DNA of 64,000 nt from Candidatus Bilamarchaeaceae archaeon (GCA_038851325.1 JAWCKZ010000002.1:26902-90901); one strand, 5' to 3'; numbered from the stretch's first letter, positions 1 to 3,363 are shown. A program made the numbers and translations. Notes: generated by a model not told the origin, from the sequence alone.

Positions 1-124
1 TATCGTTTGTAGGGCTGGCGAGCATTTTCACTTAACGGCTCCAGCATAAAAGAAGTTCCGCCGAAGGCGAGAGCGCCGCAGGGCGTGGCAAAATTACGAA
101 GTAATTTTGAGTCGCGAGGGGTCG

Positions 125-685
125 CTACTCTAATTTTCTCTTTACCCACTCAACTGCTTTTTGGACATAATATTCTTTATCACTTTCAACATTTTTGATA
201 ATCTCTCTAATTTCATTTGTCAAACTTTTATCTTTCGTAAAATTAATTAATAGAACAATAGCAAATCTTCTTTCCCAGAGATTTTTAGATTTGACCAATT
301 TTTTAGAAATTCCAAATATTTCTTTTTGTTTTGTCTTTGTAATTCCTTTTATTCCTTGGGTTGCTAAGGTATCACAAGCAGCCCAGTCGACAATTTCCTT
401 CGCAAATTTTTCGATAAGCTGTAAAGTCTTTTCTGGATCTTTTTTACAAAGTTTCCCAAGTAATTTTGTTGCTAAAAGTTTTTCCTCAAATGACTTAGAT
501 TCCCATAGCTCTTCAACAAGGCCAAATCCGGCTGTTTTGTATTTTATAGCAAGTGAATTTAGTTCAGGAATTTTGACGCCATAAACTTTTTGAGAAGTTG
601 GAATAAATTTTTGAAAACTTGCTTTGACTTTTTCATTTGCTTTTGTTTGTAATATCTTTTTGATTTCTAGTAGCTCTTTTGGCAT
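125..685 (-). CDS. DNA alkylation repair protein (AlkD-like HEAT repeat); cassette gene
   Basis: YGVKIPEL, W..CD (DWAACD), W.RR (LWERRFAIV) and YVQKAVEW motifs of the AlkD family; very AT-rich. Confidence 0.85.
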   Translation of the reverse strand: MPKELLEIKKILQTKANEKVKASFQKFIPTSQKVYGVKIPELNSLAIKYKTAGFGLVEELWESKSFEEKLLATKLLGKLCKKDPEKTLQLIEKFAKEIVDWAACDTLATQGIKGITKTKQKEIFGISKKLVKSKNLWERRFAIVLLINFTKDKSLTNEIREIIKNVESDKEYYVQKAVEWVKRKLE

Positions 686-746
686 AATAGTCTAGTTGAA
701 GTGTCAGTATTTAATTATTTTTCCATTTGCGACCTCGAGCGATTAC

Positions 747-842
747 GCCTAACGTATGCACTTATACGCAATTTTCAGAAGAAAAAATTGGGGTGGAACC
801 GAGCGACAGAGCGAAGGCAGAACCGTATAAGCGCTGTTAGCA
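747..842. mobile_element. attC-like recombination hairpin 1
   Basis: GCCTAAC (747-753), arm GCACTTATACG (758-768), complementary arm CGTATAAGCGC (824-834), GTTAGCA (836-842). Confidence 0.65.
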
Positions 843-928
843 GATCAAAGTGCCCCGAGTGGGGCGTAGCGGAACGAGAGCGCAGCGTGGTTCGACGAAC
901 GAAGTGAGGAGAAAGTCCCGAGCCAGCC

Positions 929-1264
929 CTATGCAAGTTTTAGACCATTTTTAACCTTTCTTTCTGGAATGGCCAAAACAACATCTCCATTATCCAAAAC
1001 AAAACCAGTTGTAAGAACTTCGGAAATAAAATTTCCAATTTGTTTTGGCGGAAAATTAGTAACGCAAATAACTTGCTTACCTAACAATTCTTCCTTTTTA
1101 TACAAACTTGTAATTTGAGCACTTGATTTTTTGGTTCCATATTTACCAAAATCTATCAGTAATTTATATGCTGGTTTTTTAGCTTCTGGGAAGTCGTCTA
1201 CTTTGATAATTGTTCCAACTCTTATATCTACTTTTTCAAAATCGTCCCAAGTTATTTGTGTCAT
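929..1264 (-). CDS. csaA: CsaA / tRNA-binding protein (OB fold); cassette gene
   Basis: [38 protein letters not shown] motifs; start placed at MTQITW (alternative 1270). Confidence 0.9.
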
Positions 1265-1317
1265 AAACATTAATAAAATCGATTAAGTTATAAATCTTGG
1301 GGCTGGCGAGGGATTGC

Positions 1318-1408
1318 ACATAACATATGCGATTAAGAAAGTTTTTCGACGATGGAGCAAAATTTAGGGGGGAATTCGCAGGATTTTTCCTCTTAATCGC
1401 TGTTAGGC
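1318..1408. mobile_element. attC-like recombination hairpin 2
   Basis: ACATAAC (1318-1324), arm GCGATTAAGA (1329-1338), perfect complement TCTTAATCGC (1391-1400), GTTAGGC (1402-1408) matching GTTRRRY. Confidence 0.7.
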
Positions 1409-1419
1409 GGCACAAGCAA

Positions 1420-2757
1420 TTACAGCATCCTCTCGAGATCCTTCGAATCAAAAAGCAGGACATCAGGCTCTTTGAATTTTTCTTTAAAGCTTTTGGCAAA
1501 TATCGCATAAATCTGCTTTTCACTTTTCCATTGAACTAATGCAGCCTTTTCTTTTAGTTCAGCCAAGATAGTCCTAGCATCAACTCTATTCTGCCATTTG
1601 CACTCTGCGAATAAAATTTCTTTATTCCTTTCATTTAAGGCCACAATATCTATCTCTTTGTCTTTATGCCACCATTTTCCTATTTTCGTTGGCTTGAATA
1701 TTTTTGCCTCTAGTATGAATTCTTTGCATATATTCTCAAAAGCCTTGCCTACATAGGCATTAAGTTCTTGCTTAATTGAACCGAAAACTTCTTTCTGCAA
1801 GCCTTGCTCTATTGCAGACTTGTTTTTGAAAATAAACTTGAACCAAAAGCTATAGAAATTGTCTTTAATCTTGTATCTTGTTGTTTTTGCTTTTAACTTT
1901 CTAGCTATTACTGGAATTTCTTTTTCAATAAGACCTACTCTTTCCAAAACCGATAAATATTTCGGGAGTTTATAACTTTGTATTTTGCTAACCTCTGCTA
2001 TTTCGACAAATTTTATGTATCCGTCTGCTATAGCTGAAAGTATAGAAGTATATGGTGCAGGGGTTCTAAACTCCTCAAACAGAAGATTAAGAGGTTCATT
2101 GTATAAAAAAGATGTCTTATCCAAAATCTTCTTTTTTATGTTTTCATCTATACTTAATTTTGGGTCGAATTCCTCCAGATATCGCGGGACCCCCCCTAGA
2201 ATCGAATAGGCCTCTACAAGCTGTTCAATTTTATAATCTGGAAAGAAATCTTTGATAAACTTAAACTTCAGCGGCAAAATGTGCATCTCCATAGTCTTTC
2301 TGCCATAAAGAGCAGAGCCGTAGCCCATTGCAATCTTGTATATCGCGGATATTATCGAGCCACAGAGAATCAACTTTTTATCAGTACCTTTTAGCTTTTC
2401 CCACCATCTCTGCGCAATCGTGGGCCATGCCCTATTGACTTGGTAAAGATATTGGAATTCATCTATTATAATTATTTTGTGCCTGCTTTTGTAGAGAAAT
2501 TCAAAAAAGTCATCCCATGTGTTAAATTTTACAAATTCTTCCATGACCTGCTTTGAGAGGACATCAAGTATGTTCTCTGATATATCCGCCAGCAAGTAGA
2601 GCGCATCCGTCTTTTTTGCAAATTCGACCAGCAGTCTGCTCTTTCCGACTCTCCGCCTGCCATAAATCAGGGCTAGCTCTGCTCTCTTTGATCTTGCTAG
2701 CTCTAACAACCTGCCAAGCTCCTCAGCCCTGTTAATAAACATTATCATAATAATCAT
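1420..2757 (-). CDS. Archaeal AAA+ ATPase with wHTH and DUF234 / restriction-endonuclease-like C-terminus
   Basis: FINRAEEL, YGRRRVGKS Walker A, IIDEFQYL Walker B, GGVPRYL, EIDIVA...ECKW. Confidence 0.9.
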   Translation of the reverse strand: MIIMIMFINRAEELGRLLELARSKRAELALIYGRRRVGKSRLLVEFAKKTDALYLLADISENILDVLSKQVMEEFVKFNTWDDFFEFLYKSRHKIIIIDEFQYLYQVNRAWPTIAQRWWEKLKGTDKKLILCGSIISAIYKIAMGYGSALYGRKTMEMHILPLKFKFIKDFFPDYKIEQLVEAYSILGGVPRYLEEFDPKLSIDENIKKKILDKTSFLYNEPLNLLFEEFRTPAPYTSILSAIADGYIKFVEIAEVSKIQSYKLPKYLSVLERVGLIEKEIPVIARKLKAKTTRYKIKDNFYSFWFKFIFKNKSAIEQGLQKEVFGSIKQELNAYVGKAFENICKEFILEAKIFKPTKIGKWWHKDKEIDIVALNERNKEILFAECKWQNRVDARTILAELKEKAALVQWKSEKQIYAIFAKSFKEKFKEPDVLLFDSKDLERML

Positions 2758-2973
2758 TATTATAATCTTGTATTTAAAACTTTTGGTCTGGTGTTGTAAT
2801 TGTTTCTCCTGAATTAATGTTACCTCGCTGACTTACTTTCATTTTATTCAGCTTCTTCATAATCTGAAGAGTCCTTCCGAATTTATCAAGGTAACCTTAT
2901 TTCGGGATAATACAATATAAATTTTTATTGCGGGGCGGAGTGAATTACGCCTCACAACTATTAAGCGAGATTT

Positions 2974-3363
2974 TCATTGCGAAACAGCCCTTTTTGAAAG
3001 CTCATCCGCCTCTTCGTTTTGCTCGCGCGAGATATGCTCAACTTTCACATTCATGCCGAACATAAGGCCGTCCACCTTTGCCTTCAACGGCTTGAGCTTT
3101 CTGTCCTTCACCTTATACTCTCCACTCATCTGGCGGGCAAGCAGCTGACTGTCCGTCCTTATGTGAACCTCTTTTTCTCTCATTTTTTTCGCAATTTCAA
3201 GTGCTCTGATGAGCGCAAGATACTCTGCTATGTTATTAGTTCCCTCACCGACATATTCGCTTATTTCAAGTATCTTCTTTTTGTCCTTGTAGACAACCAG
3301 GCCTATGCCCATAGGCCCAGGATTTCCAAAGCATGCGCCATCTGTATAGATTATAAGCGCCAT
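2974..3363 (-). CDS. rnhA: Ribonuclease HI
   Basis: YTDGACFGNPG, TNNIAEY, TDSQL, REQNEEADELS. Confidence 0.95.
   Translation of the reverse strand: MALIIYTDGACFGNPGPMGIGLVVYKDKKKILEISEYVGEGTNNIAEYLALIRALEIAKKMREKEVHIRTDSQLLARQMSGEYKVKDRKLKPLKAKVDGLMFGMNVKVEHISREQNEEADELSKRAVSQ

Follow-up and report, generated by a model that had tools for sequence, protein, structure and literature searches.

In integrons, cassettes are recombined through one strand exchange on a folded strand, and the reaction is then resolved by replication. The insertion carried by the integron integrase IntI is described as necessary for integron recombination in the relevant parts of two papers (PMC9668308 and PMC8138268); the sections of Smyshlyaev et al. 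2021 (PMC8138268) that treat this domain report that it is incompletely conserved in an "integron-like" subgroup, yet essential for integron function. Surveys filter on the IntI insertion and on a model of the attC site. Using standard criteria, Ghaly et al. 2022 (PMC9668308) described archaeal integrons whose IntIs carry the additional domain, and, as far as the main parts of that paper go, canonical attC sites and CALINs have been reported from Nanoarchaeota and Aenigmatarchaeota; the full list comprises 539 sites, and the nine tested archaeal attC sequences given in Data S9 look canonical by eye. CALINs in phages were likewise found with canonical finders (the pertinent sections of Qi et al. 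2023, PMC9892861). No cassette system is given for insertion-less members in those sections of PMC8138268 or in the entry for the recombinase family NF040815, and the pertinent sections of Qi et al. 2023, Ghaly et al. 2021 (PMC8618304), PMC7468147, and PMC3414803 contain no description of the cassette system reported here. Six contig prefixes from the loci studied are absent from the supplement text and from parts of Data S1, S3, and S8 to S10 of PMC9668308, whose selection may have filtered these genomes out. Our literature searches, with subscription journals outside their coverage, found no paper on this system.

The window analyzed here is a stretch of 64,000 nucleotides from a Candidatus Bilamarchaeaceae archaeon (JAWCKZ010000002.1:26902-90901; contig C2 of its genome). 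The genome measures 0.9 Mb, is 91% complete, and encodes an archaeal-type ValRS scoring over its cut-off as well as Nre; the host is an archaeon, and we infer that it belongs to the DPANN group. We read the structured spacers at the left end of the window as cassette recombination sites of an integron-like platform that uses a short tyrosine recombinase of the NF040815 neighborhood, a reading to which we give a probability of roughly 80%, with the activity of the platform presumed from comparison. The window itself holds a decayed orphan block, rather than the active platform, and its order across an adjoining scaffold gap is insecure.

A preliminary description of this DNA had proposed a cassette array at 1..1408 in which AT-rich genes alternate with GC-rich spacers, and the composition agrees (GC content of 0.23-0.38 in genes and 0.44-0.60 in spacers). 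The two genes that it named, encoding AlkD-like and CsaA proteins, are present on the minus strand and match their family profiles. The right limit was set too early, as the array reaches 2971 and includes a third cassette, encoding an ATPase, and an attI-like fragment. A cassette was also said to run off the left edge; its leader is indeed found at 1..33 (minus strand), where the 5' end of a cassette resembling the csaA leader stops at the crossover core of site A, and the edge itself is a 10-N scaffold gap (C2:26892-26901), in which the gene of that cassette has been lost. When contigs from sequencing run X1 were compared, a different leader, ending in ATT-N6-AAC, was found ahead of site A.

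Site A is represented by its left half (34..69, plus strand), comprising AAC, an arm, and an AAGTT stem, with the right half deleted. The alkD cassette follows, with a 3' structured module of small stem-loops (76..124, plus strand), 37 nt of which are identical to a module adjoining a site on contig C11, then the alkD-like DNA alkylation repair gene (125..685, minus strand; 186 aa; PF08713, E 1.4e-33), and an AT-rich, promoter-like leader (686..750, minus strand) that forms a short inverted repeat with the 3' side of the gene and may act as its promoter. Site B, a folded cassette site running from AAC to GTT (751..838, plus strand), scores 64 bits (E 4e-12) with R1, a covariance model built from 28 sites of which site B is one, and has a 90% identical copy on contig C8. 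The csaA cassette consists of a 3' module (839..928, plus strand), whose first 6 nt pair with its own 5' end at 2 of 6 positions, the gene for the tRNA-binding chaperone CsaA (929..1270, minus strand; 113 aa; TIGR02222, 156 bits against a cut-off of 119.65), and a leader (1271..1321, minus strand) with ATT-N6 just ahead of AAC. Site C, of the same AAC-to-GTT form (1322..1404, plus strand), is also a training member of R1 (75 bits, E 1e-14) and recurs both left of the scaffold gap (139 of 140 nt identical) and on contig C11. The third cassette gene (1420..2757, minus strand; 445 aa; PF01637 and PF03008) encodes an ATPase with a DUF234 domain, a 64% homologue of which ends next to the same type of site in locus L228. 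Beyond it lies a fragment of an attI-like site (2953..2971, plus strand) in which CAC replaces AAC and which is 97% identical over 31 nt to the site ahead of the recombinase gene on C11. An 11-nt direct repeat (right copy 2967..2977, minus strand; left copy C2:26547-26557) brackets the whole 3.3-kb block, and the chromosomal flank begins with rnhA, encoding RNase HI (2974..3363, minus strand). Around each of the two smaller genes, leader and 3' module share a short inverted repeat (100-125/700-745 and 905-932/1285-1320), which would close a larger stem in a circular cassette. A sigma-70 promoter scan, a model not apt for archaea, returned 9 promoters against 7.9 expected.

The geometry that the preliminary description attributed to two hairpins was recovered at both: site B has AAC at 751, 4 nt, an arm with 9 of its first 10 pairs intact, T, and a GTT ending at 838, while site C has AAC at 1322, 4 nt, an arm with 10 of 10 pairs, T, and a GTT ending at 1404. 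What had been called a 4/1 spacer asymmetry is actually a single base pair, A-T or G-T, next to which 2-3 bases bulge out. A third TAAC (AAC at 34-36) had been described as lacking a partner arm, which is correct within the window; it is nevertheless a site, since contigs of X1 run on from position 69 with GAATTTGGG, the inner stem of the site family, and site A is therefore an internally deleted copy. It gives no match to R1. A scan of the whole genome (899,799 bases) for the AAC-arm-arm-GTT geometry gave 13 matches, among which the 1/4 spacing occurs only in B, C, and one copy just left of the window. Folding z-scores are modest (-0.8/-1.4 for site B and -2.3/-2.5 for site C), and an Rfam search returned nothing below E 1 for positions 1-1600 and only a weak tRNA-like match in the 20 kb to the left of the window. 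Hairpins B and C are unimpressive by themselves; the case rests on the family to which they belong.

To characterize that family, R1 was searched against 80 loci encoding relatives of the C11 recombinase, giving 57 matches, of which 26 are training sites and two weak ones are the attachment site itself; all 57 lie on one strand, upstream of the recombinase gene. By pattern matching, 166,566 upstream bases yielded 48 sites and 468,726 downstream bases 5, with none on the upstream reverse strand. In the R1 alignment, the arm helix is 97.7% paired and 9 of 11 pairs show changes on both sides; covariation amounts to 0.392, compared with 0.130 for shuffled and at most 0.180 for slid alignments, a value inflated by the relatedness of the sequences. 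In the common fold, AAC is paired to GTT and followed by a single A-T or G-T pair; 35 of 39 sites then bulge by 2-3 bases on the 5' arm, and beyond the arm helix lies a branched interior, with AAGT/ATTTG in 37 of 39. The bottom strand is the better-folding one in 40/40 sites. The G-T wobbles lie on this strand: an inner pair is G-T in 26 of 28 sites, and the first pair is G-T in 12 cases and never A-C. Copies of the site adjoin many unrelated genes, and synteny varies among relatives. A 17-mer pattern search of 301 genomes of the phylum gave matches in 29, with control matches similarly many.

Several further arrangements were observed on contig C8 of the host. One cassette-like unit there has a DUF1761 gene behind an GAATTACGCC-TAAC end (L003:55-560), and another has an AIPR gene pair next to a site B-like copy whose core is mutated, the unit being split by an IS66 remnant (L003:2174-3851). 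At a cassette-leader position (L003:3900-4400) lies an IS-like end (TTAAACGAAGG...AATTGCA), part of a broken transposase-like frame on the same contig. The same end is found upstream of the attI-like site in L030, L041, L054-L056, L063, and L092-L094, possibly reflecting an insertion sequence that mimics or targets cassette ends.

In agreement with the preliminary description, no recombinase is encoded in the window: PF00589 matches two genes genome-wide, neither on C2. One of them, on contig C1 (99563-100129; PF00589, E 2e-20), is a second, more distant tyrosine recombinase. The other, on C11, encodes a protein of 269 aa whose start is preceded, at a distance of about 100 nt, by the intact form of the site found as a fragment at 2953. 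The order on C11 is recombinase, attI-like site, one gene, and a site of the family, the latter 1.1 kb from the recombinase, and the ends of this cassette pair with each other at 5 of 6 positions. The best family for the recombinase is NF040815, at 208.9 bits just below the cut-off of 220; against TIGR02249 (IntI) it scores 179 bits with a cut-off of 265, and no gene of the host genome exceeds that cut-off. When aligned to VchIntIA, residues 175-192 of the C11 protein stand for residues 178-240, and the IntI insertion is therefore absent. The predicted fold (pLDDT 90) finds its best structural matches in XerA and VchIntIA. All six catalytic residues (R-K-H-R-H-Y) are intact and are kept in 72-73 of 73 relatives, in every one of which the catalytic K and the box II H are separated by 59-62 residues, compared with 106 in IntI1 and 70-71 in XerC/D. 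The C11 copy (L004:5391-6200) is unique among 74 sequences in having R at residue 223, next to the catalytic arginine, where all 73 relatives carry H; it may thus be impaired.

A scan of species genomes returned 224 relatives of this recombinase, the best 80 of which are 56-92% identical, all archaeal, and drawn from Woese-, Pace-, Aenigm-, Iain-, and Altiarchaea, Methanosarcinales, and Thermoplasmata; a whole reading frame is present in 73 of these 80. In a tree of 27 rows, which includes 17 of the 73 archaeal proteins and leaves aside the second recombinase on C1, the 18 archaeal rows form a clade with support of 99/99, whose position relative to IntI1 or a Bacteroidota group is not given by this tree, the branches being long. 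Among 60 relatives of the host, the recombinase occurs in 5 (at E 1e-30), sites occur in 8, and both occur in 4; counting against the association, 4 of the 8 site-bearing relatives lack a recombinase match and 1 of the 5 with a match lacks a site, these genomes being incomplete. The recombinase gene has internal stops in two of the 5. Viral contigs yielded 48 loci, all encoding distant phage integrases (25-41% identity), and matches in named phages were below 40% identity. On plasmids, 7 matches were obtained at E 1e-40, all from Bacteroidota and 34-41% identical. Two of these plasmid loci have co-oriented arrays behind the recombinase gene, with weak R1 matches (best E 0.0026), and encode recombinases without the insertion. 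One of the two, on a marine Flagellimonas plasmid (NZ_CP092416.1, L127:3880-5990), has erm(F) and a dihydrofolate reductase gene between Bacteroidota-type sites, adjoining an NF040815 recombinase. In another Bacteroidota array (NZ_CP111070.1, L177:6390-8425), a group II intron interrupts the cassette site just after a GNAT gene.

The attachment site was examined in 77 of the 80 loci, with L076, L082, and L086 dropped for partial or no upstream DNA; from a separate tabulation, the rows of L083, in which the attachment site lies at a contig edge and was mis-sorted, were dropped. An attI-like site precedes the recombinase gene in 72 of 77 loci, with a different gene beyond it, as judged from a motif list partly fitted after viewing. 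Of these 72 sites, 71-72 retain AAC and all have T at +9. Conservation stops at AAC: the right side is kept, and on the left side only ATT at -9 to -7. The gene beyond begins at a median distance of 68 nt (24 minus-strand genes), and 24 array genes comprise 16 with Pfam matches, in 14 families, and 8 without a match. In 31 of the 77 loci the assembly breaks within 400 bases upstream of the recombinase gene, as expected next to a variable region. The loci are related, and these counts are therefore of non-independent events. Within the attI-like sites (L016-L095), an inner inverted repeat has at least 8 of 10 pairs in 52 of 72, a count made with no control run, and a further AAAAGCGA motif about 50 nt on overlaps the likely recombinase promoter. 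The inner repeat and AAAAGCGA may provide additional binding sites through which the gene regulates itself.

For cassettes that move as circles, the two ends of one cassette should pair with each other rather than with the ends of array neighbors. We therefore compared the 6 bases past the GTT of a site with the 6 that precede the AAC at the cassette's opposite end, using array neighbors as the reference. Own ends paired at 5.0 of 6 positions, compared with 2.8 for neighbors, and did better in 28 of 32 cassettes and worse in none; the best of 5,000 permutations reached 3.5. This count left out 8 of 40 sites, 7 because the next site was more than 2,500 nt away and 1 at a contig edge. In a second set of 120 metagenome loci, picked by a site 22-mer independently of the enzyme, the values were 4.1 and 2.5, the permutation maximum being 3.7; own ends did better in 15 of 23 cassettes and worse in 1, and the 22-mer was found behind 95 different 12-nt left flanks. 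In the two Bacteroidota plasmid arrays, with sites picked by eye, own ends paired better in 9 of 9 cassettes. Within the window, the ATPase cassette passes (5 of 6), the csaA cassette fails (2 of 6, compared with 3 of 6 for neighbors), and the half needed for alkD is gone. Since the base before AAC tracks the next cassette and the base after it tracks the hairpin, the crossover is placed inside AAC/GTT. At the level of sequence, own-end pairing implies circular cassettes.

In 4 of 6 same-genus genomes, rnhA and a methyltransferase gene are in direct contact, and the other two have a nucleotidyltransferase-HEPN-like pair (named by eye) between them. In the host, the whole 3.3-kb block sits in this junction, flanked by the 11-nt direct repeats; it is therefore an orphan block that arrived by a route other than cassette insertion. 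Three genomes of the genus carry foreign inserts bracketed by short direct repeats at this junction (L157 and L156/L162): the array here, and pairs resembling toxin-antitoxin systems in G002 and G004. Elsewhere in the chromosome of one same-genus genome lie three sites, beside different genes. In G001 (contig C12, L151:9000-9130), the first array site joins chromosomal DNA after iscU at a noncanonical core, AAT, a junction like that of secondary-site integration.

The order of the window was compared with contigs from four runs of one study (X1-X4), one of which may be the source sample. Directly left of the gap lie the site C copy and the last 40 bases of the ATPase gene, together a 140-nt duplication that reflects either two alleles or a mis-join; before this copy we read a truncated cassette gene and then a DNA methyltransferase gene. 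No contig of the four runs spans the block. In X1 and X2, the csaA contig departs from the reference at AAC, and the ATPase gene follows the site variant found left of the gap; with no spanning contig, the window order may thus be one allele or a scaffolding chimera formed through the repeated site C. In the latter case, the alkD-csaA segment would come from another array of the host or of a co-occurring genome. The depth of alkD in X1 (30.8, about 3-fold that of the flanks at 8.5-9.3) and its 14 differences (a 98% variant) show that alkD is also present elsewhere in the X1 community, and they fit a chimera; against it, the csaA contig of X3 reaches 17 nt into site C, and the csaA depth in X1 (9.3) equals that of the flanks. 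We regard a chimeric order of gap, alkD, csaA, and ATPase as a serious prospect that falls short of even odds; it concerns this window only and is compatible with the integron-like reading. In a related strain (X4), the flanks are joined without alkD and csaA. Circle junctions were sought in the contigs of the four runs and none was seen. One candidate, a joint going back from window position 1409 to 76 with 19 other letters at a depth of 52, is better read as other community copies of site and module. Contig ends at AAC were excluded as proof of crossover, as they also arise where repeats converge.

Turning from the window to the system, an HUH enzyme might move the hairpins as nonautonomous repeats of a MITE- or REP-like kind, which would insert next to genes and give rise to arrays as a by-product. 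Copies are spread over three contigs, some adjoining IS remnants, and extra stem-loop modules flank the sites. Against this, PF01797 (Y1_Tnp) has no match in the 91% complete genome, whereas the profile does match 6 of 14 controls. Relative to the recombinase, the sites keep to one side and one strand, and cassette ends a gene apart co-vary, which is unexpected for insertion of a lone hairpin; own-end pairing largely refutes the mobile-repeat reading, which we consider very improbable. Slightly less credible still is that the structures act as RNA, as terminators or 3' stability elements of independently acquired genes. They do follow stop codons, and two terminator-like stems lie on the minus strand (4 overall, compared with 2.1 expected), but the better-folding, wobble-bearing strand is opposite to most genes, 7 of 22 cassette genes are reversed with the site unchanged, and Rfam gives no match below E 1. 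The sites could also be a CALIN of divergent but canonical attC sites, on which an ordinary IntI encoded elsewhere acts. They share the AAC/GTT core, a similar core (TTAAG), and the same strand logic, and the published archaeal attC sites and CALINs cited above lend this some plausibility. We compared the archaeal sites with 10 canonical attC sites from class 1 integrons, using the same script: the extrahelical base is absent in 39/39 archaeal sites and present in 10/10 canonical ones, and GTT lies 6 bases from the L core, compared with 7 in attC and attI1. All 14 matches of a rough, home-made model of the 10 attC sites fell in class 1 loci, and six archaeal loci returned none at E 5; with R1, one canonical attC site scored E 2.5. 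The host genome has no IntI over the cut-off, and the archaeal attC sequences of Data S9 look canonical by eye; we place this reading at the same low level as the RNA one.

The alternative with most to recommend it retains the same system and enzyme and supposes that sites recombine as duplex inverted repeats, or as cruciforms of either strand, in the manner of Xer/dif or Cre/lox. The enzyme is XerA-like in sequence and fold and lacks the insertion, the attI-like sites have the inner inverted repeat described above, and compensatory changes, taken by themselves, are consistent as well with inverted repeats that act in duplex form. In duplex form, however, AAC would have its partner core at 8-9 bases on one side, with the AAC and GTT cores 70-200 bases apart, and the 6-base register of the attI-like site appears only in the folded strand, on which the wobbles are also one-sided. 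The core there is TA or TT in 36/39 cassette sites and in all 72 attachment sites; with this shared register and core, the fold recreates the attachment site in its duplex form, and the bulge absorbs the spare bases. Recombination as duplex therefore strikes us as improbable.

We accordingly favor recombination on folded strands by an integron-like platform, with the following putative mechanism. As comparison among loci shows, the platform consists of a recombinase gene, a fixed attachment site about 90-130 nt ahead of its start, and cassettes beyond, facing away. A cassette comprises a single gene, the leader of that gene, and a folded 3' site. Own-end pairing indicates that a cassette leaves and enters as a circle, with the crossover inside AAC/GTT, at a bond that may be the one used in integrons. 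Most likely, the recombinase acts on the bottom strand in its folded form: the geometry is observed, and single-strand use is probable. In the folded site, AAC is paired with GTT, 2-3 bases are looped out, and the 10-11 bp arm sets a T-A/T-T core 6 bases from AAC; as this is the distance in the double-stranded attachment site, the fold copies that site. One strand exchange would be followed by replication finishing the reaction, as in integrons. The block in the window, three cassettes and a fragment of an attachment site, would have landed in the rnhA-methyltransferase junction between the 11-nt direct repeats, and the C11 recombinase could act on it in trans.

Whether these loci amount to a second, parallel integron lineage undescribed in print, in which an insertion-less recombinase acts on folded single strands and a bulge beside the crossover replaces the extrahelical bases, is a narrower question, and we lean only slightly toward that view. 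If true, the lineage spans DPANN archaea, Methanosarcinales, and Thermoplasmata, with a sister form in Bacteroidota that adjoins erm(F) on one plasmid. Standard finders would not detect such a lineage, which could reveal the form that the ancestor of IntI had. Given a platform that works without the insertion and outside the attC model, cassette capture would be far more common in archaea and Bacteroidota than has been counted. For tiny archaea, it would offer a route to sample accessory and defense genes (HNH, TIR-NTPase, SIR2, and methyltransferase genes were seen). The system would also make a clean test case for the recombination of folded single strands by a plain Xer-type enzyme, and a structure-reading recombinase of 269 residues with a defined pair of sites is a candidate tool. 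The value lies in the system and its testable geometry, and less in the decayed copy in the window.

Set against known systems, the archaeal recombinase has its closest solved structures, by sequence and fold, in XerA and XerC/D (PDB entries 5hxy, 4a8e, and 1a0p), which likewise lack the insertion. Unlike Xer with its dif site, it is patchy (5 of 60 relatives), often broken, and near-identical across distant archaeal groups, and it is tied to cassette arrays rather than to one terminus site. NF040815 (recomb_XerA_Arch), whose NCBIfam product name is "site-specific tyrosine recombinase/integron integrase", is the nearest family, and its Bacteroidota members, annotated as xerA, head arrays with the same site logic; the archaeal proteins differ in forming a clade of their own (99/99), in a short N-terminal part, and in scoring below the family cut-off, and the Bacteroidota arrays differ in lying downstream of the recombinase gene and being co-oriented with it.

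With integrons, both class 1 and sedentary chromosomal, and with the archaeal integrons and CALINs as presented in the main parts of PMC9668308, the system shares an attachment site adjoining the recombinase gene, cassettes facing away, an AAC/GTT crossover, a bottom-strand fold, ends that pair in a circle, small accessory cargo, and orphan arrays; like them, the array consists of same-strand sites between unrelated genes. It differs in a recombinase without the IntI-specific domain and in cassettes that appear to carry their own leaders. Compared with attC, the sites lack the extrahelical base of the L arm and have instead a one-sided bulge of 2-3 bases beside R on the 5' arm, a paired central spacer, a 6-base rather than a 7-base register, and a conserved branched interior with AAGT/ATTTG; standard integron finders would probably miss them. 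The tests together support the original proposal of a cassette-capture system related to, and distinct from, classical integrons: the array works like an integron and is, by two defining features, not a member of that group.
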